A stretch of DNA of 63,336 nt, counting the filler, from Chrysochromulina tobinii (taxonomy: Eukaryota): assembly GCA_001275005.1 (NCBI GenBank). It is 5 parts of 5 records of this genome, joined end to end, with 100 filler letters (N's around TTAATTAATTAA, not from the genome) between each part and the next. Parts side by side here need not be neighbours in the genome. Positions count along the whole stretch, not along the records: positions 1 to 18,756 come from JWZX01000738.1; 4 more parts are not named here. The stretch is one strand, 5' to 3'. The translations under genes and the position numbers were made by a program. The notes below the pieces were generated by a model that saw only the letters and a list, made by a program, of their open reading frames with translations, ran no database searches and was not told where the DNA came from. This document shows, piece by piece, positions 1,076 through 30,068 of this stretch; positions within the stretch are counted from its first letter, which is position 1; the number at the start of each line of letters is the position of its first letter.

Positions 1076-1740
1076 TCAGTAGGTCCACCACGGTTTCGTG
1101 TACTTGGCCTTTGGTTTCAGCAGCTCCGACGGCAGCTGCAGCTTCTGGACAATCTCATCGGGGATAGGGCTCTTGCACGTCCAGCCGCGATCCCTCATGT
1201 ACTTTGTGAGGCGTCGCTCCTCGGAAGCACTCGGCAGCTGCCGGTAGAATACAAACTTTTTCGACTGGCAGTGCTTGATGGCCTTCGAGAGCGAGACGAG
1301 CTTCGAGTTGTCCACCTTCATTTTCAGCCCGCCCTTGTCAAATGCAAAGTTGCCCACGTCGCAGTCGACGCCAGGCGGCGTCTTGGGCTGCGTCTTGGGG
1401 TCGACCAGATCCATTTCGAGCTTGTGCTCCTGGAATTTGAAGCAGAGCGTGTGCGCCGCGCCCTTCGCCTTCTCCTCGACGCACTTGAGGCCGTGGCTTT
1501 CGAGCACAGTCTTGATTTTCTCCTTCTTTTTCTGCACATCGTCCACCAGCGTGTCCACGTCATTCGCTGTCTCGCCACGGATGAGCCAGTCACGCAAGAT
1601 GCCTGCGCACATGAGTTCGAGTCACAAGTGGGTGCACACAAGAGAGGCAGAGGGGTGGAGGGGGCATGTCCGACTTGCAGCATACTGACCACCGTACACG
1701 CAGCCATCTGCGTCCCAAATTGCCGTGTGCGCTATCAAGA
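1076..1740 (-). other. Pol-beta-fold nucleotidyltransferase domain (CCA/poly(A) polymerase head-like) at C-terminus of the giant protein
   Basis: After splicing: VYGGILRDWLIRGETANDVD (hGGxxRD...DxD), third acidic residue in EMDLVD, DCDVGN (resembles DFTxN), RLTKYMRDRGW. Confidence 0.8.
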
Positions 1741-4700
1741 GCAAAGCCTGGTCCTTGTTCTGCGGACTGGGCGGCTTGGTCGGTGTGCGCAGCAGCATCT
1801 GGCGCGTCTGTAGGCCGCTACTTACCCCTTGTCCGTCGGCCGCTACTTCCGCTCCGCTGACAGTCTCCGGATTCAGCATGTTCATTTTCATCGAATCGCC
1901 GCCACCGGAGCTCCATTGGAGATTCTGCTCCAGTCCGAGCGTCTCAATGAGTTTGGCTCGCACACGGCCGACCACCGTACTCTTGAGCGCTCTCGCCCGG
2001 CCCGCCATGCGGATTCGCACGCGGAAAGGACCCGCCGCACCCTTGGTATCGCCGTCCCAGCTTTTGGTCTCAGCGTTCCATCTCTCGACCCTGATCCACT
2101 GGCCTTTGCCCTCTTTGCCCTCGAGCTGTTTGCGGTTGTCGTTCTCCGCTGCCCCAAGCGACTCATCGAGCTCATTACTGAGGTCCTGCTGCAGCACCTG
2201 CTTCACTGTAATGAATTTGCCAATTTTGCCGCTCGCTTCCGGCGGGATGGGCAAGATGATATCCTCTTCGCCGAGGTGCTCGAGCCGCCGGTTGATGCGG
2301 CGCGTGATCGCGGCCTCCATCGCCGCGGGGCACGTGACGATGAGGCTGCTCCTATCCTCCTTGCCGCTAGGCGCGTGACCAAAGTTGATCAAGGCCGACG
2401 GGAACTTAAGCCGGATCGTCTCAAAGAAACCATAGTTGCCGTCCTGGAGCAAGGCGTTGTGGCCCTTTTCGCCAAGGGGCAGAGTGAAGGTGGTGCGCTT
2501 GAAGTCCCTGATCACTTTGGCCATCTTGGAAGGGTCGGGTGCGCTGTTCTCGAGCATCTGCGCGTCAATGTACGAGGCTACCTGCGCCGACGGTTGCATT
2601 TTCCCACCGTCCTGTCATCCCACACGTGGTGGCAAAGGTGGAGACATTCACGTGCGCGTCAGAGCAGTGCAGCGCAATGAGCACACGCAGAAGAAGAGGG
2701 AGAGACGGACGCACCGTTTGGATGACGCTGCCAAACAGCACGAGTTGCGAGGTGTTCGAGGCGGGCAGGGCAAGCTCGGGCTGCCAGAGCGTCGAGTTTT
2801 TGTCGAGCTTGACCTCTGCGGCGCGCTGAGCATGCGCATCCTTATCCTCCTGCTGTTTGATCTGCGCCTTAGCTTGCAAGAGCTGCGCAATGCTTGCTCG
2901 CGCAGCGGTCGTGGACTCATCGTCGCCGTCCTTGTCCTCGCTATCATCTTGTCGCCCGCGCTCCTCGACAAACGCGCGGATGCCTTGCGCTTGCTCGTGC
3001 GAGTTCTCCGAGATCCAAATGAGGCCGTGGCTGAGGTCCTGCGCCTTCTTGGGCACTGCGACCTGGTCATAGTACGCCTTGCACAAGGCAGTGAGGAGGG
3101 CCTGTTTGAGCTCCTCTGGCGGCGACGTCTTTGCGTCCTTCCAATGAAACGGGTCATCCGCGGGATCGTACCCTTTTATGCCTTGCTTACCGAGGGTGGC
3201 TATGATGTGATCGTACACGTCCTCAGCCTCACCCAAAGGCTCAAGGGGTAGGTGGTGCTCCATACACCAGTTGTACCCTCTGCCCTGCGCCTCCTCAATG
3301 AAGCCCTTGACCGTGCGCAGCAGCGTCCAATGGTCGCCCGAGCTATCCTGGAAGGGCGACGTCCTCGCCCCCGATGGCTTGCCTGCATGCCCCGGGCCAA
3401 AAAAGCCCCAGAGTGAGGAAGCCCACGAGGGCGCCGCGGGCGTCTGCACCTGCCTCACCTTGCGCTCCTTATCGGTGGCGTTGTTGGTCTGCACGATCTC
3501 GCCCTTTTCAACTCTGGCCGTGTATTGCTGGCCCCGGCTCTCGTAGCTGACGGGCTTCTGGTCCTGCAGCAGCTGGCGCAGCCTGGCGACGACGGCCGTG
3601 TCGTGGATGTGACTGAACTGCCCCGAGCCATTCTCGACCTCGAAGCCGTGAGGAGCGTGAGACGGCGCCTTGGCGGCCGCCGCTGACTGGATCGGCTTGA
3701 GCGGCAGCAGCTTGACATGGTCGCTACTTGAGAGGGCTGCCGCGAGGTAAACCCCTGCAGCGAGGCATGACAACGACTCCGGCCGTCCCGGGTACGCGCA
3801 GTGGTAGAGGAAGAGGCCGAGGCGCACGCCAAGGCCGAGGTTCAGGTTGAGGCGGCCAACCGATGTCAGGAGGTCAACCTCCCGGCCGCCGATGGTCTGC
3901 TTCTCCAGGAGGCCAAGCGTGCGCAGCCGCTGCTTTGCCAATTGAACGGCCTCCTTCGGTAGCGACTCGATCATCTCGAGCGGCGGCGGAGCCTGCTTCG
4001 TCTTCGGGTCGGGTTTCTGCGCATCCACAAGGCGAAGGACGGTCTGCTCGATGTTGGCCTCGGTGATGGCCGCCGGCGGCTCGTCTACAAACTTAGCTTC
4101 GTCGTCGGCCGAGTAGAGGCGCACGCAGATGCCCGAGGACACGCGTCCTGCGCGTCCGGTACGCTGGCGCATCGATGACTTGGTAATCGACTTCGTGATG
4201 AGCTCCTGCATGTTCGTATGGTGGTTGAAGCGCGCGCGTCGCTCGAGGCCGGTGTCGATGACGTAGCGCACGTTATCGACGGTGATGCCCGTCTCGGCGT
4301 AGTTGGTCGTGAAGACGATGACGCGATCCTCGCGCGGGTTGAGGACCGCGTCTCGCTCCGCCGAGGTGAGCTTGCCGTGGAACGGGTGAATACCGACGAG
4401 GATGCTCTTTCTCTTGCTCTTGCTCTTGCCTCCACCCCAGCCACCACCACCACGCTCAACCGCCGCACCCGCCACTTTGTGGTCGGCGTCTGCGTCAACG
4501 TCGAGGTGAAAGGAGAAGCCCTTGCCGGGGCGGTCAAAGGTGGTGGCGCTCGGGTCAAAGGGGTCGGAGAACCGGCTGCGACAGAAGCTGAGTGCGCGAT
4601 TGATGTCGCCCTCCCCCGGCATGAAGACGAGCACGTTGCCGTCGGCCGAGCTCTGCAGCAGCTCGACAGCCTGCTCCAGCGCCACCTGGCAAAGCACCTT

Positions 4701-7700
4701 GCCCACGCCTGCGGAGCCGAGCTGGCGCGTCTTATCGTGCAGCGACGCGTCTGCGCTGCCGGCCGCCGCGCCCGTCATCATCGAGATGTCGCAACGTTGC
4801 ACGAAGACAGGGTACGTCTTGCCGGTGAGCTCCACTACCTCTGGTAGCGGCTTATCGGGCCCCTCGCGCAAAAAGTTGCGGAAAACCTCTTTCGAGCTGC
4901 CGATGGTTGCCGAGGTGATGATCACGCGCACATCCGTCGCCGCGACGAGCCGCTTGATGAGAGCGAGGCTCATGTCGATCTCCGCTGAGCGCTCGTGCGC
5001 TTCGTCGAGGATGACGGCCGCGTAGCCGACCGACTCCAGGGCCGCGGCCGCCGACGGATCGGCCGGCAGGTCCCCATCGGCATCTTGTTGATCTCCAGCC
5101 GGCGCCGAAGTGCGCGCAAGCTTCCTTGCAAACCGCTGGGGGTCCTTAGCAAGTTGAACGAAGAGGCCATGAGTCATGAAGCGGATTCGTGTCTCGCTCG
5201 AGGCCTTCTCCTCACCTCGGCCCACTGTGTAGCCTACCTCTCGGCCGGCGAGGGTGCCGCGCTCTTCGGCGACTCGATCGCAGAGGGATGACGCGTTCAC
5301 GCGGCGCGGCTGCAGCACAGCGACCTGCCGCGTCTCGTTGGGGTCCAGCACGTGGTCGAGCACATACTGCGGCAGCTGCGTCGATTTTCCCGAGCCCGTT
5401 GGTGCAGTGACAATCAGCACCTGATGCTGCTTGAGCTTTTTGATCAACTGCGCACACAGGTGGTGGAGCAGATGAGCTGGCAATCACAGCACAGTGAGTT
5501 GGCAATCAGCACAATGAGCTGCCATGGAGAGACAGTGAGCTGGCAGTCGATTGGCAGGTAAGGTGCCGCGCCTCACCTCCTCCTTGGCCGCATAGACGGG
5601 AAGACCAGCGTCGAATTGGCGCTTCTCGCGCTCAAACCTGTTGCGAAGATCCTCGTGAGCTGCATCCTCCGATGAACCACTCAGCTCCTTGTACGTGTGC
5701 TCGAATTCGCGCAGGCGCGCGGTGTAGTAGTTGACCGCCTTCCGGCCGTCGTCATACGCTGCCTTGGCGAACGCGTCCTCTTCCTTCTTGATCTGCTCTC
5801 TCAACTCCTGTGCCACCTTGGCCGCCTTCGCCGCTGCCTCCCGCTCGGCTGCACCCGGGTCGACGGCTTGTCCGGTATCCGTACCGAAGTCGACAATGTG
5901 TGTTGGCACGACTTGCTTCGTGTGTTGCCACACTAGAACAGATCCGGCAGGAGGGTTGCTGGCGTTGCCGCCGAGGTTCTGCAAGCATGCCGGCGAGAAG
6001 GCGACAGGGTTGACCAAGCCGTTCATGACGAGGATCGAGCCGCTAGTTCTTGCATATGCGTTCGGCGTGCTCATGTTTCCGTACACGCTGTACACGCCGC
6101 GGCCCCACGCAAGGCCGTTCACACTACCAAAGATCTTCTCATCGAAGCCGTTCAGCGCGATCGAAGTCGAACGCCATACGTCGGGTGTCCCATGAAAGAC
6201 GTCCCCGAGCTCGCGTTGCAGCGCACCCTTGGCATGCAGCGCGCCCTTCTCCTTTTCGTACTCGGCCTGCCGCACGCCCACCTTACACCGGCGAATCGAC
6301 GTGATCACGCGCCCCTGAGGGACCAGCGCCGTCAGCCGCCTGTACTCGTGGTCCGACGGGGGCAGCGGCATGATCGGCGGCGGTGGTGGCGGTGGCGGCG
6401 CAGCCTTCTTGAGCGTCCACTCGCTGCCAAACTTTGCCTGAGGCCATGCCTGCTGATCCAGCTGGCTCAGCCTGGAGCACTTGTTCAGCTCCGCCTGGAT
6501 GGTAGCGCCGAGGTCTTCGGTGATCTGAACCTGCTGCACGTAGCCAGAGACGTGCGGCCGGCGACACGCGTAGCACACGAGACGCATGGGGGCGTAGTAC
6601 TCTCAGCGGACGAGAGAAGCGCAGGGATCGAGGGAATTGACAATGTGGAGGCACTCAGGAGAGTGTCGGTTGGCTAGGCACTCAGGAGAGTGTCGATTGG
6701 CGAGCGCACCGCGCCGTTGAGCACGCTCTGCACCGCTTGCTGCACGAGCGGCTCCTTGACCATCTTGGCCAGAAAGCCCGAGATGCGCTCTCGTGGGTGG
6801 CGGAACTCGCGGTAGGCACCCTGCTCGGTGGTAGGCATCGTCGGGTTTCCACCGCCCTTGTCGACTGCGGCGACGAGGGCGGCCCATGAGACCCAAGTCA
6901 GGTAGGCGGCCTCGGCGCCGTGCGGCTTGAAGTGCATCGAGTTGTAGTGCTTCGCCACGTGCGCAAACGCGAGCCCTCCCTCCTTAGGACGCGCAACGTA
7001 GAGGACATACTTGCCTTGACGGCCCGCGAGGTAGATCTGGCGCGCGGGCGGTTTGGAGAAGAGAGCCCTGAGGGAGCCCTTGTCCAACTTGAAGCCCGTC
7101 TCCTCGCAGAACTCGCGGCATGCCACGTCGAGCGGCAATTCGCGCGAGTGGTCTCGCTTGCCGCCGAGTGGTTTGAGGCCCTCGCCATATTCCATACCGA
7201 GGAGTACTTCCGGCTCACCACCATGGCCGCGGCGCAGCGTGAGTGCGCCGGCTGAGCTGAAGCCGCCCTGCTCCTTTGGCTGCAGCTGAGCAGGACGCAG
7301 CTCCTTGGGCGCCGTGGCGTCGTAGCTCTCGCCATCGTCACCACGGGGTATTCCGCCGCTACTGCCGCCACCGTCGCCACCCGCCGCTGCGCGCCCAGGG
7401 TACCATCTTGGAGCGGCTGTTGGAGGATAGGAAGGCATCGGATCCGCACCACCATCGGGTGGGCCTTCAAGCGGAGTGGTCACCTGGAAGTCGCACGAGT
7501 TGAGGCGTCCCGGTCGGTGAGTCACACGATGCTGGCAGTAGCTCAGCGGCATAGCGCATATGCAGGCACTCTTGCCGCAGCGTGCGGGCAGTACGCGCGT
7601 GCGGGCGGGCGGTACGGGCGGTATTACAATGCCAAAGACGCCCTCCCTCTGCACCCCCATGACCGCGGCCATGCCGGAGCCAAAGATTCGCTGGCCAGCG

Positions 7701-8559
7701 CGCAGATTCCAGTTGCCTGCGTTCGCACCCCACACATGGTAGTTCAAGGAGCACGCGTCCTCGCCGACACGGCCGAAGACCACCCGGTCGGGGAACATGT
7801 CACGCAGGTTGTAGATGGATTCGTCAAGTGCATCGATGAAGCGCTGGTACTGCGCGTGCGTGAAGCCTTTGCTCTGCGCCGAGGGGTGGCAGCGCAAGCG
7901 GTGTGAGGTGTATATGAAAGGGCAGTAAGATATGGTGGCGCAGGCACAGCGGTCACCAGCCACTGATTTATGGCGAGGCCCTTGCCCAGGCGTGGCTCAC
8001 GGCCGTCGTCACTTGGAATGGTCGCCTTGGCGTCTTGCTTTCTTAAGAGGATGCCGACCAGCTCACCGATGCGCTCGCGGACGTGGGCAATGTAAACCTC
8101 GACGGAGTGTTCTTCGATTGCAGGTGCAGCCGGAGCATGCATGGCATCCGGGCTGCCATAAATTTCCCCACGCTGACCGCGATGACTATCTGGGGCGTCT
8201 TTCTCTGCTTCAGACTTTGGGGCGGAATTCGTGCGGGTTGCGGATGGCGGGCCGCTGCCGCCGTTGGGTCTTCGTTGCTTAATCTGCTTCTTGATTTCCA
8301 TGGAGTGGCCTCGGGGAATGCCCTCTATTTGGAGCTGTTCGTGCATCTCCTGAAGTTCATCGTCATCGTAGTTCAGCAGTATTTCCAAACTGCTGAAGCC
8401 AGACCGCCGCATGATTGCCGCGTAGGTTGAAGCGTTCTCAACCACATGCGGATGCGCCGATTCTGTAAGGAATCCGTCGAGCGTTTCGTCGGGCGCGGAG
8501 CACGCGGAGGACGGCCTAAAGGCGCCGGGCGCGTTGAATACGACATGCGGTGGCGGCAT
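1076..8559 (-). CDS. Giant 7-exon multidomain protein (~2,250 aa): SAM - macro-like? - Nudix - PARP catalytic - DEAH-box RNA helicase (WWE-like insert) - KH-like - nucleotidyltransferase
   Basis: Exons 8559-7957, 7873-7628, 7483-6710, 6533-5577, 5447-2715, 2611-1690, 1602-1076 join in frame via GT-AG introns (7874-7956, 7484-7627, 6534-6709, 5448-5576, 2612-2714, 1603-1689). Two junctions rebuild conserved motifs: LPVYAAKEE|LIKKLKQHQVLIVTAPTGSGKSTQLPQY (DEAH N-terminus) and GCVYGG|ILRDW...NDVD (NTase signature). The Nudix-PARP join (acceptor 6534 or 6531) is the least constrained. Confidence 0.8.
2715..5610 (-). other. DEAH/RHA RNA helicase (RecA1, RecA2, HA2, OB-like) of the giant protein
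   Basis: Motifs APTGSGKSTQLPQY, QPRRVNA, VGY, FMTHG, ILDEAHER, TSAT, LVFMPG, TNYAETGITVDNVRYVIDTG, QRTGRAGR, GDHWTLL. Confidence 0.97.
5886..6370 (-). other. PARP-family ADP-ribosyltransferase catalytic domain of the giant protein
   Basis: Ordered motifs: EYRRL...ITSIRR...EYE; VFHGT (6186-6197); SIALNGFD; AWGRGVYS; NAYA; ILVM; VLVW...QVVPTHIVDF. Confidence 0.85.
6750..7260 (-). other. Nudix hydrolase domain of the giant protein
   Basis: SAGALTLRR...EVLLGMEYGEGLKPLGGKRDHSRELPLDVACREFCEETG, a Nudix box (G..x..E-x7-REUxEExG) with catalytic glutamates intact, ~7096-7166. Confidence 0.9.
8275..8490 (-). other. SAM-like domain at N-terminus of the giant protein
   Basis: LDGFLTESAHPHVVENASTYAAIMRRSGFSSLEILLNYDDDELQEMHEQLQIEGIPRGHSMEIKKQI fits the SAM pattern (fL..l.L..Y...f...gf.sl..L......L..l..Gi..GH..kI). 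Confidence 0.65.
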
Positions 8560-8831
8560 TTCTCGTCGAGGTCGTGCTCTTCGCGAGCGCGGCGCACAAA
8601 ACCCGAGCGATGTGGACTCGCTACTGCCGCGATACCCGCCAATGTGTGAATGCGTGTGTGGGTGAATGCTAACACGTTCACGTTCATGCTCACTCGGCAA
8701 GGATGCCTTCTTTGTTCCGCTCGTTAATTAAAAGGCGCCGAAACGCGTGTTTCCCCACAGGGGGAGAGGTCCCTGGAGCCGATGGCTGCCGCGCGCGCTC
8801 GGCTTCTATTGCCCGTGCGATCGACTGTAAG
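8560..8831. promoter_or_regulatory. Probable bidirectional promoter between the two multidomain genes
   Basis: 272 bp between divergent ATGs at 8559(-) and 8832(+), with an AT-rich patch GTTAATTAAAA near 8723. Inferred from geometry only. Confidence 0.5.
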
Positions 8832-11354
8832 ATGCCCCAACCCAATCTTCTGAAGTATAAGCAAAGAAAAATGGAGCAGGAACTGCTCGCACGCGTGCTA
8901 CTTGCGCAAGATGACACTATGAGCGGATACGCCACGGCTCTGCGCGAGATACGCGCCGGCCACAAGCAGACGTGTTGGATCTGGTGGATATGGCCCACAC
9001 TGGCAGGTGTGCGCGAGACCAGCAAACCAGAGTTTTACGTGCCGGACGCAGAGGCTGCCTTGAAGTGGATTCGACATCCGAAGCTTGGCCCTCGCTTTGT
9101 CGATATCACGCGCCAAGCGGTGGACCACCTTGACGCTGGCGTGAGTCCATTACGGCTGTTCGGCTGGCAAGCCGACGTGGATAAGTTTCACGAGAGCGTG
9201 ACACTCTTCGGTGAGGTTACCAGGTGCAGCTACCCCGATCAAATTCGGCTTGAAGTTGTGTCGCTGTGTAATCGTGCGCTGAAGGCGCTGCAGCTACCAC
9301 CCCACCAGAAGACGCTCGAGGTGCTGCAACGGACGGGCGAGTCCTTCAGGCCGCAGCTCGACCCCCACTCGTTCGATCGCTCCATGTCGAATTCTCAATT
9401 GGCGTCAACACCTCCTCCTACCGAGTTGGCCGTCTTCCTCGCCGAGCTCGGCCTCGCCGCGCACACGGCGGTGATGCGCGCCGAAGGTTTCGATAGCATT
9501 GCCGCCCTCGGCACGATGGACAGTGACGATGCCACCGAGATGCGCTCGGCGCTCGCCGCCCGCGGGGTGCCTGGAGTCGACGTCGACCGCATTCTCGGCG
9601 CGGCAGTAGCCTGGGTGCACACCCCCCAAGCCGAGAATGTGCCGAGAATGCGCCCGGTGCTCCAAGCGGCCGGCAGCGGAGCCGTGACTGGAACGCCTGT
9701 GCAGCCGCAGCCACCGCCCATGTCCCAGGCCGCCTCCGTGATAGCTGTGGCGAGGGTCGCGGACGATTCTCGTCTCCTCTCGCAGCAGCCTCACCCGACA
9801 CGTGGCGCTGGTGGTGCGCCGGCTCTAGAGGTTGCAGCGGCCTTCGACGGTAGCACGCGTGCTGCAGGTGAGGCGAGTGGCGGAGGAGGTTCAATGAGGT
9901 CCCACACAGGGCCCCCTGCACAGGCATTCCAGCCACCGCAGGCGCAGGTCGCGGCCGCCAGGACCCCCGCCACGGTACCAAGGTTCGCGACGACCACAGT
10001 TCGACTGTGGGATAACGACGCGGACGTGGCCCAGCAGGCTGACAATTGCCTGCGGAGGATGAACGAGGCCACACTGGCGGATCCGGCAACGGCCGAGAGC
10101 CTCAAGCCTCTGTGCACCGTGGACGCACCCGTCCGAGATGGTGAGGCGATTCGTGGCTGGTCGTGCGTACGGATGGCGAGTGTGGCGCTGCCCGTGCCCT
10201 TAGCGCCACGCCTCCTCGCGCTCGATGTAGAGATGATAGAGAGGCGTGCCGACGGCGTGCGGCTGCCGGTGAGCGCCGCCCTCATCTGCTACGACCTTTC
10301 GCCACGGCAGCCGCAGCGCGTGCTCTTTTCTGGCCTTGTGGACCCGTCGGACTTTGATCGCGAGTGGCTGAGCGGCCCCATGGCTTACGACTACAAGGAG
10401 CGCTGGGTCGGACTCGACTACATGGCGCTGCGTGCGGCGCGTGAGCGCGGCGAGATGACGCCGGTGCGCGACCTCCAGCGCCTCGTACAAAAGCACATGC
10501 ACAGCGCCACCTATCTCGTCGGCCACTCCCTCAGTGGTGACCTCAAGGTGCTTCGCTTACACGGCCCCGAGCTTGAAGCGCGCGTCGTCGATACGCAAGC
10601 GCTGTACCCGCTGCCAGCGGGAGTCGGCCACGCGCGTCTCAAGGCCCTTGTGGAGGACATGCTACCGGCCGAGGCGTGGCGGCACTTCCAGGCGGTAGGC
10701 GCGGCGCACCCACCTGATCAGGACGCCAATGCGGCACTCGAGCTCGTGACGCGTGAGCTCGAGCTTCTCCTCGAGCAGCCTCAGCGCCGTATCGGCATGT
10801 GGAGCAACAGCGACGGTAGCGGCGGCAATCGCGGTGGCTGCTCGAAGCGTCCAATAACGGCCAACGATTCGCGGGCGATTCGAACGTTGCTAGTGGCCGA
10901 GTCAGACGTCGGACGTCTGATTGGGAAAAAGGGCTCAAAGATCGAGCAGCTTCGCGCCGACAGCGGTGCGCAACTCGAGCTTCTCTCACAAGCCGAGAGC
11001 CACACGCGGGGCGGGAGCACAGACGATACAAAACGAGTGCTGCGCATCGAGGCGCCTGACTGGGCCACGCTTGACCGTGCGTGTGCGCTCATCCATGCGT
11101 CGGTGCTGGTGCCTCCCGTTGTTGCCGGCATGGAGCATCTGACTCAGACCCCAGCCGACGACGTTGCCGCGGTGGTCCAGGGTTCGGCGCGGTATGAGGA
11201 GGATCGCGTGAGCACATCGGTGCGATCCTGTGGCCCCTCCCGAGCGAAGACGCTGTAGCTCCGGCTCAGGTCAGTGGCCCCGATGAGCATGGGCGGCATG
11301 GGCGCACCGATGGGCGGTGCTGCGCCGATGGGCGGTTTTCCGATGGGCAAGTAA
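8832..11354 (+). CDS. DUF1810 - SAM - DEDDh (REX/ISG20-like) 3'-5' exonuclease - KH domain protein
   Basis: DUF1810: GYATALREIRAGHKQTCWIWWIWPTLAG...HPKLGPRF...LFG...DVDKFHESVTLF (~8923-9300). SAM: LAVFLAELGLAAHTAVMRAEGFDSIAAL (~9421-9610). DEDDh: LALDVEMI / LVGHSLSGDLKVL / VVDT / HPPDQDANAALEL (~10200-10760). KH: VGRLIGKKGSKIEQLRADSGA (~10880-11100). A likely 78-nt intron (11192-11269, GTATGA..CTCAG) removes the TAG and adds a Met/Gly-rich tail ending at TAA 11354. Confidence 0.85.
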
Positions 11355-12026
11355 GCGCGCACGCAAACGGATCTTTGCTTTACGGTCCGTGGCAAATGAA
11401 GTGCCGGCCACTAATACTGCACAGTTTCTCGGTCATGGGCGCTCATGCAACTACCGTACGCTACACGCAGTTTTCTCGGGGGGGTCGGTCCCGGTCCTGC
11501 ATTGTGATTGTCACCTCAGAGGGCCGGCGGGCGTCAGCCACTGTGTTGAAACACCATAGGGTAACTACCTGTGTAGTGAAACCCTCCCCCTAGGTCAAAA
11601 TCTTGCGCCGGGCAGCGGTACGGTACGCAATGATAGAGCGAACACTCGACAGGTACCTACACACAGTTTTAACGCTCGCTTCACGAGTGCGGATCGCGCA
11701 AAACCCCGAGCGAGCCCTGGCAGGAAATCAGTTTCGTCGCGGTCCCCCGAAGCGCTCACCTCACCGGCATACTCAACGGACCGGACGGGACGGCTCCGCA
11801 CCCCTCGGTCAACACAAGAATCACAAGTACGAAGTAGAAGTACTGCTCGCTCTCTCGTGTCACTCCATTATGCTAGTGAGGTTAATGGGAGAGACAAATG
11901 CACAGCGTTCTGCACCCGCTGGCGCGGCGGCCATTGGTAGTCATCGGGTACGCCCGCCATGTCGCCCTTTGCGCCGCCACGGCATCGAGCAACAGGTCGC
12001 CGCGGCGCAGCCCAACGGCCACCAGG

Positions 12027-12899
12027 CTATGGGGCACGGGCGACCGTCTCGCCATCCACTTCGTCTAGACTTGGTTTTGCCTTCTTGTCGCCCCCGCCCG
12101 TGTCCCACTTGGATTTTCGCTTCACGACGGACGCGTCGGTCGCCGCGGCTGGCGGCGCTGCCGTAGAGGTGCCGATGCCGGCGGCGCCGCTCGGCGCCGC
12201 CCTTGGCTGCTGCTGATGCTGCTGCTCGAGGAGGCCCGAGGAGTGAAATTGCACACGCTCGCCCGGCTTGCGGCTCTGTCGCTCCTCGTACTCGCGCCGC
12301 GCGCGCTCGAGTTCCTCATAGAACTCGTGGGGCTCCACGGCCGTCGGGTCGTAAATCTCGCTCGGGTAGTTGCTGCCATTCTCAACAACGTCCATGAACG
12401 CGACCAACTTCTCGAGCAGGTCGGGGTTGCGAAAGCGCTTGGAATTGCGAATGTAGTCATTGACGCGATTGCCCTCCGTGGAGGACTTCACAAAGCCAAG
12501 AAACTTGGCCATGACCTTTGGGTTGCACTCGCCGGGCGGCGAGGGCGGCACCTGGAAGGACGGACGCACGTCCTCCTTTGGCGCAGGAGCGTCGGGCGTG
12601 CTGGAGGTGGTGCCATCGGCGTCCGAGGCGACGGCGAGCTTGGCGCTGCGCTTCACGATGGACACCTGAACGCTGCCCAGCCGCCGCGTGCCGCTCTTGA
12701 CGATGTCATCGTCGTCCAAAGAGACGCCCAGGTCCCTCGCAGGCATGGGCGGTTTGTCACCATTGCGGTAATCTACAATGGAGAGTAGGCCCGACGCGGG
12801 CGCCGGTGCGGCCGCGTTGCTGGTGCCGGCGGACGCCGGGGCCTCGTCGCCCGCGCTCTCCATCGGCTCGGGTGTCTCGGAGTACGCGACGAGGGACAT
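12027..12899 (-). CDS. SAP30BP: SAP30-binding protein (HCNGP-like)
   Basis: PPSPPGECNPK...IRNSKRFRNPDLLEKLVAFMDVVENGSNYPSEIYDP...FYEEL and C-terminal KRKSKWD; N-terminal MSLVAYS. Confidence 0.9.
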   Translation of the reverse strand: MSLVAYSETPEPMESAGDEAPASAGTSNAAAPAPASGLLSIVDYRNGDKPPMPARDLGVSLDDDDIVKSGTRRLGSVQVSIVKRSAKLAVASDADGTTSSTPDAPAPKEDVRPSFQVPPSPPGECNPKVMAKFLGFVKSSTEGNRVNDYIRNSKRFRNPDLLEKLVAFMDVVENGSNYPSEIYDPTAVEPHEFYEELERARREYEERQSRKPGERVQFHSSGLLEQQHQQQPRAAPSGAAGIGTSTAAPPAAATDASVVKRKSKWDTGGGDKKAKPSLDEVDGETVARAP

Positions 12900-13041
12900 G
12901 GCGTTCACAGCTGCTTCACAGTGGAGAGAATTTTCAGACTAACTTCGGCGCGGCAAAAGAATAGGAATTCACGACACCACGGGACCTGTCGTCTTGCCGT
13001 GATGGCAATTTAATTAACGCGAAGGTGAACGTGAGGAATTC

Positions 13042-13890: not shown

Positions 13891-14090
13891 TTGCATGAGG
13901 AGCCTCTCAAGGAGCTCGCGACGACGCTATCGCTGCCAGTCCCGTGCAGCTAATACGGGACCATTTTCTTCTCGCGCGAACAGTGCCGTGTGTACCCGCG
14001 CACAGCGTCATGTTCCGTGACGTGAACTTTGACACAACTCGTGGGTTTACCGTAATCCAGTATTCACAGTGCAGGCCGCCGACTTTTTTA

Positions 14091-16218
14091 ATGGGCTGCG
14101 CCCAGGCGCGTCTCAAAACCAAGGTCGACGTGCGCGACCTGGAGTCGATTGTGCGCACGGGCGACCTCATTCTCTTCTCGTCCAAGCACGCTGCAGCGCA
14201 GGTGACCAAGTGCTTCACGGCGTCGACTTGGGATCACTGCGGCATGGTGGTCAAGTTCTCGTCGCGGCATGTCTTCATCCTCGAGTACGCAGGCGGTGTC
14301 TTCCTCTACCCGCTCTTTACACGGCTCTACACGTACTACGCCATCCAGGGCCGGGAGATCGTGCTGCGGAGGCTGCTACCCGGGCAGGACCGCGTCGAGA
14401 TGCAGAGGCGCGTCGAATCCTTCGTGCGCGGAGTGCTTGGGCAGAAGCCGCCGTCGATCGAGGAGATCCTCCTCGCCGTCCTGAAGCAAGAGGGCGTGGT
14501 CTCCTCGTTCCTCGCACGCCTCGCGGGCACCAACGAAAAGGAGCACGTGGACAACCTCGAGACCCTCTTCTGCTCAAAGCTGATCGCGTGCGTGTACAAG
14601 GAGGTTGGCATCCTAGGTAAGCACCGCAAGTCGTCGGACTTTCTGCCCAAGCACTTTGCGGAGGAGTACGACGAGTACCTCGACCTGCAGGCGGGCGCGC
14701 TGCTCGGCCCCGGGCTGCCCATCAATTTCATGAGCGTCGCAGAGGAGGTTGAGAACATCCGTCAGCGGATAGTCGAAGAGGAGCGTAAGAAGCCCGAGGC
14801 GATCGTGCGGGCCGTGTCGCAGTTCTACGTGGCGGCGCGCTCGGGCGTCGGAGGGCTCGGCGACGAGATCTCGCGCTCATTCCGCAATCTCGAGCGCGGC
14901 TTGCATGGCTGGTCCGAGGCAGCCCTGATTGCCTATGATTGCCTATGATTGCCTAGGATTGCTTAGGATTGCTTAGGATTGCTTATGATTGCTTATGATT
15001 GCCTACCTATAATTGCATGGCTGGTGTGAGGCAGCCCTGATTGCCTATGATTGCCATTCGCCCTGAGAACCCTGAGCCCGGAGTGCCAGTAGCCCTGATT
15101 GCCACTCATGACGGATGGCCTCTGATGGCCACTGATGAGCGCTGATTGCCACTCATGACGGATGGCCTCTGATGGCCACTGATGAGCGCTGATTGCCACT
15201 CATGACGGATGGCCACTCATGACGGATGGCCGCTGACGAGCGCTGATTGCCCCTCTCATCAGGTCCGAAGCGGCCGAGCTCGCACTTTCACGCACCTCGA
15301 GCTTCGCCAAGTTCGAGCAGCCCTTGATGGCAGAGGCTCCCGAAGCAGAGGCTCCCACAAGTGGGCGCCGTCGTGGGCGCGCCATCGCCCCGAACGGCAC
15401 CGCACAGGACGACAGCGCCCACGACGGCGCTGATGCTCACGACGGCGCTCCGACTCACGACGACGCCCACGACGGCGCGACAGCTCACGACGGCGCCCAC
15501 GACGGGTCGAGTCCACCCCTCCGCGGTGAGGAAGCCGCCGAGCTAGCTGAAGCGCGAGCGGCCGCCATGGACGACTCTCAGGCGAGGGAGCGCTTCGCCC
15601 GAGCCCAATCGCAGAGTCAGCGCGGCGCACATGCTGCACAAGGGTCAAGTCGGTACGATCGGCCGCCCGAGCGCCTGCCCAACGATGAGACACAGTTGGC
15701 CAACAATGGTGGTTACAACGCGTCTCAAGTGGCAGTGGCGCTCGATGACGACGTGGCGGCAGCGCGTGCGAACGGAGCGTTGACGCCGCTGCGGCGCAAC
15801 AGCAGCAGCGTGGCCTTCGATCTGTCGCGCGTCGGCAGCAGCGGAGGGCTGCGCTTGCAAGGGGGAGCTCTCGTCGACGAGGTGAAGGATGTGTCGCCGT
15901 GGTTCCACTCCCTCCTAATTGCCTCCGGATTGCCTCCTAATTGCCTCCGGATTGCCTCCTAATTGCCTCCGGATTGCCTCCTAATTGCCTCCGGATTGCC
16001 TCCTAATTGCCTCCGGATTGCCTCCGGATTGCCTCCTAATTGCCTCCGGATTGCCTCCTAATTGCCTCCGGATTGCCTCCTAATTGCCTCCGGATTGCCT
16101 CCGAATTGCCTCCTAATTGCCTCCTAATTGCCTCCAGGTGGAGAATGTGTCGGATGGCGGCGTGTACGCTCCAAGCGCCCTCAACGGCTACAGCCCGCCT
16201 TCGGCTCCACCTTCGGTT

Positions 16219-28404: not shown

Positions 28405-29930
28405 CTATGCGCGGGTGACTTGAGTGTGCTCGCTGAAGGCCGATGGGTCGACGACGGTCGCTGATGGGATCGTGATCGACGCGAGAGAGGTGCAGTCGTA
28501 AAAGGCGTCGTAACCAATCTGCATCACCGACTCGGGGATCGTGATCGACGCGAGCAAGGTGCAGCCGAGAAAGGCTTGCTCACCTATCTGCGTCACCGAC
28601 GCGGGGAGCGTGATCGATGCGAGCGAGGTGCAGCCGAGAAAGGCTAGCTCACCAATCTGCGTCACCGACACGGGGAGCGTGATCGACGCGAGCGAGGTGC
28701 AGCCGTGAAAGGCGTACCCACCAATTTGTGTCACTGACTCGGGGATCGTGATCGACGCGAGCGAGGTGCAGCCCTGAAAGGCAGCCACACCAATCTGCGT
28801 CACCGACGCGGGGAGCGTGATCGACGCGAGCGAGCGGCAGCCCCAAAAGGCCCACGTGCCAATCTGCGTCACCGACGAGGGGAGCGTGATCGACGCGAGC
28901 GAGGTGCAGCCGTAAAAGGCGCTCTCACCAATCTGCGTCACCGACGAGGGGAGCGTGATCGACGCGAGCGAGGCGCAGCCGCGAAAGGCGTCCTTACCAA
29001 TCTGCGTCACCGACGCGGGGAGGTTCGCGACCGACTTGAGCGACTCGCAGTCTCCCATCTTGAGCTCTCGCAGCGCCGTCAGCCTCGCCACAGACGCCGG
29101 CAGCGCCTCCCCCTTCCACTTCTTCCCGCTCAGATTCAGCCCGCGCACGCGCGCCCCTCCTCCTTGTCCGCCGTGAGCGCCCTGCCGAGCCCGTCCCGGC
29201 CGCCCTCCACCCCCGCCGCCCACTCGGGATCCTCCAGGATCCACGCGTCCTCAGACGCCCCGATGAGCTCCACGTCCGTCGCCCCGATGAGCTCCAGAGC
29301 CGTAAAGGTGACTTGAGTGTGCTTGTCGAAGGCGCATGGGTGGACGAGGTTCGCCGATGGGATCGTGATCGACGAAAGCGAGGTGCAGACCTTAAAGGCG
29401 TCCGGACCAATCTGCGTCACCGACTCGGGGATCGTGATCGATGCGAGCGAGGTGCAGCCGTAAAAGGCGCGCTCACCAATCTCCGTCACCGACGCGGGGA
29501 GCGTGATCAACGAAAGCGAGGTGCAGTCGTAAAAGGCATGCCCACCAATTTGCGTCACCGACTCGGGGAGCGTGATCGACGCGAGCGAGGTGCAGCCCTG
29601 AAAGGCAGCCACACCAATCTGCGTCACCGACGCGGGGAGCGTGATCGACGCGAGCGAGGTGCAGCCGAGAAAGGATTGCCCACCAATCTGCGTCACCGAC
29701 GCAGGGAGAGTGATCGACGCGAGCGAGCGGCAGCCGAGAAAGGCTTGCCCACCAATCTGCGCCACCGTCGCGGGGAGCGTGATCGTCGTCAAAGATTTGT
29801 AACTTAACGAGCTACCCTCCCAATTGGCGGGACCGTGCACAAACAGGACCTGACACAGTTCGACGAGTGGATTCGGCGGGGGCACTGAGGGACAAAAGCA
29901 CCGCAACATGAACTTGCATGCATGCAACAA
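28405..29930 (-). CDS. BspA-type (TpLRR/LRR_5) leucine-rich repeat protein; two repeat blocks split by a frameshift at ~29154-29157; probably 5'-partial
   Basis: 23-aa repeats LASITLPASVTQIGxxAFxGCTS in ORFs 29136-29930 and 28405-29244. One extra G in the GGGG run would join ...ADKEEG to ARVRGLNLSGK...LPASVARLTALREL. Confidence 0.85.
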
Positions 29931-30068
29931 ATAGACTTTTCGGCCAACGTTCTCGCAGGCGCGTGTGAGAGGTGCAGCGTGTGCAAGGGGCTGGGAGAGC
30001 CCCTTGGCGTGTGTGAGGAAGGCGAGTACATCATTTTGAGCGCGGATATGTGCTCACGCGCCTACACC

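Follow-up and report, generated by a model that had tools for sequence, protein, structure and literature searches.

Identification of the fusion gene

The analyzed stretch of DNA (63,336 nucleotides, filler included, of Chrysochromulina tobinii assembly GCA_001275005.1; hereafter the window) carries, within the part derived from record JWZX01000738.1, an intronless open reading frame (ORF) located at 8832..11258 on the + strand and encoding an 808-aa protein (an alternative ATG start lies at 8871). Four domains lie in this single frame, in the order DUF1810, SAM, low-complexity linker, DEDDh exonuclease and KH, and the fusion is thus confirmed. The window is eukaryotic, with spliceosomal GT-AG introns and syntaxin, kelch and EF-hand genes. 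The gene ends with the TAG codon at 11256-11258; the end at 11354 given in the initial annotation had to be corrected, as it reads past this TAG to the following in-frame stop, and two near-identical full-length relatives (P0002 and P0003) share the end residue of the shorter reading. The in-frame stretch beyond the stop (11259-11354, +) is Met/Gly/Pro-rich, resembles a coding remnant and lies inside an RNA contig.

RNA runs constituted 14 of the 18 listed runs, each with >90% of the stretch's words, and four of them were examined. One RNA contig (8771-11572) spans the ORF with zero gaps and zero changed letters, and another (8779-11477) is gapless too. In X1 and X4 one contig each covered the entire ORF, free of gaps and of changed letters, and in X10 and X12 two adjoining contigs each were found. 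Six introns of the neighboring gene are spliced in these runs, so that the contigs of the fusion gene come at least partly from mRNA. The listed contigs start at 8771-8783, which is a weak hint that translation begins at ATG 8832 or 8871 rather than at 8703. The public model of this gene, P0011 (NCBI, UniRef and EukProt), has 341 aa and lacks DUF1810 and SAM; its start, M468, falls inside DEDD motif I, so that D465 and E467 are lost.

Domain composition of the fusion protein

The N-terminal DUF1810 domain (aa 13-168; 8868..9335, +) was recognized by Pfam, by structure and by its residues. The PF08837 match covers aa 19-131 (E-value 3.4e-19; 69.5 bits against a curated cut-off of 25), and the AlphaFold model of the domain shows the fold of Rv1873 (PDB 2JEK; Z 18.9, root-mean-square deviation (rmsd) 1.7 over 137 aligned residues, TM 0.79), which upholds the DUF1810 assignment made in the initial annotation. 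The model of the whole protein has a mean predicted local distance difference test (pLDDT) value of 47.5 and is confident over most of DUF1810, SAM and KH, and a model of the isolated DUF1810 domain was of poor quality. Within the family motif K-x-x-H-W-x-W-x-x-x-P-Q + D-x-x-K, the K, W, W, P, D and K residues are retained (and, more widely, Q26, E39, K45, W49, W51, P55, R88, D115 and K118), while C48 and T56 stand where the prokaryotic domains have H and Q. The window holds no second DUF1810, and neither PHROGs nor NCBIfam added anything further for the fusion protein. Among the matches listed by a wide fold search, which were taken up by KH matches, there was no relative of the domain outside DUF1810 and no ADP-ribose-processing fold; searches of the Atlas returned DUF1810 clusters only and, once PF08837 was excluded, nothing usable.

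The SAM domain (aa 194-263; 9411..9620, +) has no Pfam match in its region, and it was identified by its modeled five-helix fold, which resembles SAMD5 (5ZRZ_B; Z 8.0, rmsd 1.9, 63 of 64 residues aligned) and the tankyrase SAM (Z 7.7). It is followed by a poorly conserved Ala/Gly/Pro-rich linker (9624..10016, +) with pLDDT <50. The SDN1/REX-like DEDDh 3'-5' exonuclease domain (10212..10766, +) contains the D-x-E, D and H-x4-D residues in the expected order (D465, E467, D570, H626 and D631), and its top sequence match in the PDB is Arabidopsis SDN1, with an E-value of 1e-4 for the domain alone and 8.8e-5 for the family profile. The C-terminal type I KH domain (10869..11114, +) was found both by Pfam (PF00013, KH_1; aa 685-755, E-value 6e-9) and by structure (type I KH structures with Z up to 11.8), and it carries the GxxG loop IGKKG. 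The SAM domain, the intact nuclease site and the GxxG-type KH proposed initially are therefore all borne out, the KH by profile, fold and loop alike, and the five nuclease residues also by their retention in all four full-length relatives. AlkP, KIX and CHORD domains were listed neither by Pfam nor by the fold search, the middle region of the protein being poorly modeled.

Conservation of the fusion

Among 7,994 scored candidates, relatives of the fusion protein formed seven clusters showing 50-96% identity. Four of these (P0002, P0003, P0007 and P0008) are full-length proteins in which the five catalytic residues and the KH loop are all retained. The remaining three break off early, apparently at unspliced introns; locus L124 has introns at those same positions (two clear, the third recognized by eye), and its gene runs on into KH. 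Identity to P0007 and P0008, respectively, amounted to 99 and 91 of 152 residues in DUF1810, 39 and 34 of 66 in SAM, 133 and 118 of 185 in DEDDh, and 54 and 51 of 80 in KH, against 22 and 32 of 126 in the linker. Since in these most distant two relatives every domain is 52-72% identical and the linker 17-25%, joint selection seems to act on all four domains.

The DUF1810 family

A DUF1810 profile search of 1.84 billion representatives gave 2,241 matches (clusters at 50% identity), and the best 150 of them were mostly proteins of 100-300 aa with DUF1810 alone. Among ten clusters looked up, one came from the dinoflagellate Polykrikos and one had a member from MMETSP. The initial annotation had presented DUF1810 as a small stand-alone protein of bacteria and fungi; the stand-alone character holds for most members, and the range was too narrow, as there is a large eukaryote-like subfamily including dinoflagellate and MMETSP proteins. 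Residues shared by the prokaryotic set, the eukaryote-like set and the fusion protein are Q26, E39, G43, K45, W49, W51, P55, L85, R88, D115 and K118, although in the prokaryotic set K-H-W-W had been preselected by the search pattern. At position 48, H was found in 101 of 145 relatives, C in 29 and Q in one (14 did not match the pattern), and the motif Q was kept in 17.

In a tree of 129 DUF1810 domains, the five fusion rows formed one clade (support 97-98), placed inside a 71-row group (support 95) with none of the 35 prokaryotic and two of the 16 viral rows. This was a quick tree, built from every second profile hit and the 35 prokaryotic rows, with a root for drawing only. On the sequence evidence, the fused DUF1810 is a member of the large, mostly stand-alone, eukaryote-like subfamily. 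As for the bacterial or viral origin raised initially, a recent import is not favored by this unrooted tree, given the 71-row group without prokaryotic rows, and the root was left unfixed.

The eukaryote-like set includes proteins with two DUF1810 domains in tandem (L127, P0060 and P0150). In phage records, the eukaryotic query found nothing and a bacterial one found a single match, and in high-GC phage contigs (L107-L109, L114-L116, L118 and L119) DUF1810 is accompanied by a common C-terminal extension of ~90 aa with no Pfam match.

A further lead, homology between DUF1810 and OGFr_N, found no support, the HH-align score of 13.9 lying within the shuffled range (8-29) and not above the reversed control. 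Both families have UBA, UCH and ADP-ribose-related partners. Viral OGFr_N was found fused to NADAR (L152 and L163), UCH (L148) and UBA (L161 and L168), partners partly common to DUF1810, and in L144 (330-2292) a bacterial OGFr_N gene lies immediately upstream of an ADP-ribosylglycohydrolase gene.

Fusion partners of DUF1810

Viral contigs contained 97 distinct DUF1810 segments, of which 15 and 19, picked mainly by length, were scanned. One of the 19 (L245) joins DUF1810 to an ADP-ribosylglycohydrolase (E-value 2e-36). Giant-virus-like proteins of >2,200 aa combined a partial DUF1810 with a cytidylyltransferase/NMNAT-like domain in all four cases scanned (L198, L222, L247 and L318); Macro was detected above the cut-off in L222 and below it in L318, and the whole Macro/NMNAT-like family was counted as one event. 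Other partners, in the analysis as a whole, were a dual-specificity phosphatase (L128), an HD domain (L093, E-value 9e-5), a calcineurin-like phosphoesterase (P0067), a RamC_N/phosphothreonine-lyase-like domain (P0084, E-value 9e-4), a weak P-loop kinase-like match (P0080), UBA (L300 and L306), UCH (L310 and L313) and the unrelated DUF285, CBM20, DUF7738 and glycosyltransferase 90. Phosphatase-type and ubiquitin-related partners were as frequent as ADP-ribose ones. The theme is a loose one that goes beyond ADP-ribose, of enzymes removing or handling marks made of phosphate, ADP-ribose or ubiquitin. Fusions were undercounted, because exon fragments probably make up many of the eukaryote-like hits. 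In proviral contigs, an N6/N4 DNA methylase gene adjoins DUF1810 (L091, L092, L094, L216, L249 and L257 by Pfam, and L089 by its matching layout).

The divergent neighbor gene

Upstream of the fusion gene lies a single divergent gene (1076..8559, -) with six GT-AG introns, encoding a protein of 2,253 aa. Its splice joints were seen in all four RNA runs and, once spliced, it forms one open frame. Both genes, arranged head-to-head, are transcribed in all four runs; the gap of ~170 bases between their RNA contigs (8603..8770) is likely a shared promoter region, contig ends being a weak guide to transcript ends. Their adjacency could be followed in loci L122, L123, L125 and L126 only, which are 93-100% identical in the exons of the neighbor.

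The neighbor protein contains a SAM-like domain (8275..8481, -; SAM_2 E-value 0.042), a borderline Nudix domain (6968..7255, -; PF00293 E-value 3.4e-4, 21.0 bits, the cut-off being 21.1) and a DEAH-box helicase core (4140..5450, -; DEAD E-value 4e-10, Helicase_C E-value 3e-10). A PARP-like ADP-ribosyltransferase (ART) motif region (5886..6359, -; FHGT ... GRGVYS ... AYA) was recognized by eye; the H and Y motifs are present, with no glutamate at the usual third position. This region matched neither Pfam nor the PDB nor a 37-sequence viral PARP-like profile, and it matched a 3-sequence viral profile with an E-value of 3e-4, a weak and partly circular result, as this motif had served to select the seeds. 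The adjacent "PARP/Nudix gene" of the initial annotation is real and adjoining, albeit as one spliced 2,253-aa gene whose Nudix is borderline and whose PARP rests on motifs. Across the last intron (1340..1700, -) there is a GGxxRD ... DxD motif, presumably nucleotidyltransferase-like, as in CCA and poly(A) polymerases, with no database match found; similarly, a "WGAN...G-G.A" stretch at aa 200-285, which we take to be reminiscent of macro-like domains, had no database match.

The SAM regions of the two proteins are homologous (36% identity over 39 aa; profile E-value 2e-5 in a six-frame search of the window). Their predicted complex scored 0.49, against 0.19 for the best of three controls, with contact agreement between runs of at least 97% and partner pLDDT of at least 76. 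Of the solved pairs, 51 of 78 passed the mark applied, as did two of the 108 mismatched pairs; at scores up to 0.60 there were only five of the 78 solved pairs, yet all four passing mismatches. The modeling therefore points weakly to SAM-SAM binding between the fusion and neighbor proteins.

Three further genes of the window seem unrelated to the fusion, i.e., an HCNGP-like gene (12027-12908, -), a permuted papain-like C92 peptidase (13944-14948, +) and BspA-type LRR repeats (28408-30053, -).

Proposed role and alternative explanations

In the presented results, known parts are combined into a new architecture, found in one eukaryotic lineage, which is a moderate lead on DUF1810. Based on its motifs, the fusion protein is likely an SDN1/REX-type 3'-5' RNA exonuclease, and we regard the predicted exonuclease activity as probable. 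We infer that RNA is the substrate and that SAM mediates assembly. In the proposed mechanism, KH would grip the RNA, taking the role of the RRM of SDN1, and DEDDh would trim the RNA 3' end, while SAM would assemble the fusion protein with its partners (SAM domains are common drivers of protein assembly). DUF1810 would bind a modification of nucleotide or phosphate type, or clear it away, and thereby allow the nuclease to pick out modified RNA ends or to unblock them. The layout of the fusion gives a weak hint of a role for DUF1810 in the handling of modified nucleotides or RNA ends, and because its partners elsewhere include phosphatases, ADP-ribosylglycohydrolase, Macro and deubiquitinases, it may be a reader or eraser of nucleotide or phosphoryl groups. 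Action on a nucleotide or phosphoryl group is a tentative proposal, falling somewhat short of an even chance; action on ADP-ribose specifically is doubtful, ADP-ribose being one candidate ligand and not an established one. Taken as a whole, the reading of a conserved, transcribed four-domain protein, likely a 3'-5' RNA exonuclease with DUF1810 handling a nucleotide- or phosphate-type modification, has in our opinion about an even chance of being correct.

Several observations weigh against it. The sequence matches of the DEDDh domain are modest (E-value ~1e-4), with an alignment to SDN1 covering motifs II-III only, and the region has pLDDT <50 in the AlphaFold model, so the RNase T-like fold is not confidently modeled. 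The fusion is known from one narrow lineage only (seven clusters), and with H replaced by C48 and Q by T56, the activity of the fused DUF1810 may have been lost or changed. Most DUF1810 proteins stand alone, and among the 146 closest relatives no more than six had a second Pfam family (E-value 1e-3), none of them ADP-ribose related. Gene neighborhoods were scanned around 78 of 80 prokaryotic DUF1810 loci (298 of 301 flanking ORFs, called by a simple script, so that some real genes were missed); there was no family with more than five members and no recurring neighbor, and Macro, NADAR, Nudix, ARH and PARP, as well as nuclease-operon and phosphatase families, were absent from the 25 families listed per flank set. 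The three remaining flanking ORFs and the neighbors of the other two loci held nothing relevant. DUF1810 was present in 10 of 201 genomes of a random sample, where no ADP-ribose family was found in the 41 ORFs surrounding 12 of the loci (two genome-class searches, which drew the same 200 genomes, were counted once); the same was true of 68 and 108 viral neighbor ORFs. Six annotated plasmid DUF1810 regions had no ADP-ribose hydrolase; in one of the plasmid regions a RES-family toxin-antitoxin pair is located at a distance of three genes, and another has metallophosphoesterases. The survey of macro, NADAR, PARP and Nudix partners called for initially thus yielded one ADP-ribosylglycohydrolase fusion and one Macro family, with no ADP-ribose family showing in the ~500 flanking genes scanned. 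The interpretation proposed at that stage is borne out in part: the context of RNA binding and degradation holds and is conserved, but the link of DUF1810 to ADP-ribose is sporadic, appearing in fusions and not in the neighborhood scans or the closest relatives.

Three other explanations were considered. It is hardly credible that the ORF is an artefact, arising from several genes mistaken for one or from an assembly error: the public model P0011 would fit this, as it covers the last 341 residues without DUF1810 and SAM, but it begins within DEDD motif I and drops two catalytic residues, and the single open frame, the single RNA contigs across it, independent assemblies and intron-bearing relatives all yield the fusion, which refutes such a reading. 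A rather unlikely, though serious, possibility is domain shuffling, in which an ordinary lineage-specific RNA exonuclease would have acquired DUF1810 as a passive or scaffold module, promiscuous and either protein-binding or inactive. The joining of DUF1810 to such unrelated partners as DUF285, CBM20, DUF7738 and glycosyltransferase 90, the lack of a recurring DUF1810 neighbor, the replaced H and Q and the long, poorly conserved linker between DUF1810 and the nuclease agree with this. On the other hand, across the fusion clade DUF1810 is conserved about as well as the catalytic domain, it keeps the charged and aromatic residues common to prokaryotic and eukaryote-like members, and the Cys at position 48, occurring also in 29 of 145 other relatives, is no private lesion.

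The third explanation is an ADP-ribose system, in which the neighbor would ADP-ribosylate and unwind RNA and DUF1810 would read or remove the ADP-ribose, both proteins being joined through SAM into an RNA-surveillance or antiviral machine. Its appeal lies in the head-to-head genes, transcribed in all four runs with only the short gap between their RNA contigs, in the homologous SAM regions with their weak complex prediction, and in the existence of DUF1810 fusions with ADP-ribosylglycohydrolase and Macro. However, since solved SAM-SAM complexes exist (5ZRZ), the passing score may reflect likeness, there being no other SAM among the controls; moreover, the PARP-like assignment stands at the motif level, the adjacency is seen in the four near-identical loci only, and ADP-ribose partners are rare across the DUF1810 survey. 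We consider this system improbable, and slightly more so its fullest form, in which a SAM-linked neighbor marks and unwinds RNA (with its ART, Nudix, DEAH helicase and nucleotidyltransferase), the fusion protein reads or removes ADP-ribose and degrades the RNA, and DUF1810 is a new fold for reading or erasing ADP-ribose. If true, such a pair would be a new RNA-modification-and-decay module of microbial eukaryotes.

For the preferred reading, that of an exonuclease carrying a modification handler, the significance of the fusion is practical: it couples a widespread domain of solved structure to a nuclease that would be easy to read out, which provides an assay handle, and lets one ask directly whether DUF1810 enables action on blocked or modified RNA ends. 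In addition, the analysis brought to light a large, eukaryote-like subfamily of DUF1810 and a public model missing DUF1810 and two catalytic residues.

Comparison with known systems

Our literature search, with subscription papers and bioRxiv supplements outside its scope, found no function for DUF1810 and no description of the DUF1810/SAM/DEDDh/KH architecture. In the literature, Rv1873 is a predicted ATP binder in a structure-based survey, on computational grounds only (PMC5624866), DUF1810 is one table row, as a fungal transfer candidate (PMC5025739), and the main text of a survey of viral NAD+/ADP-ribose domains has no mention of DUF1810, Rv1873 or OGFr, on which its supplements could bear (PMC9503650).

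The fused DUF1810 has the fold and the core motif residues of Rv1873 in common, but it is joined rather than stand-alone, has C in place of H and T in place of Q, and belongs to a separate, eukaryote-like subfamily. In L245, L222 and L318, where its partners are ADP-ribose erasers, DUF1810 is likewise fused to enzymes whose targets are nucleotide-derived groups, although these domains lie elsewhere in the tree, and the fusion protein itself lacks an ADP-ribose enzyme domain.

Regarding the nuclease, the Rex1/Rexo5/Sdn5 and Rex3/REXO1 exoribonucleases (PMC12129344) combine DEDDh with family-specific accessory domains, as does the fusion protein; its accessory set is DUF1810, SAM and KH, and AlkP, or KIX plus CHORD, which mark the Rex1 and Rex3 clades, were not among the domains detected. 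The closest parallel among solved structures is SDN1 of Arabidopsis (PDB 5Z9X; PMC6123492), with which the DEDDh residues are shared and in which, too, a single-strand RNA-binding domain follows the nuclease. According to that report, the DEDDh domain of SDN1 takes the RNA 3' end and its C-terminal RRM holds the 5' part, which results in processivity. Unlike SDN1, the fusion protein ends in a type I KH rather than an RRM and begins with DUF1810 and SAM; by analogy, KH may fill the place of the RRM, but we do not class the fusion protein as an SDN.

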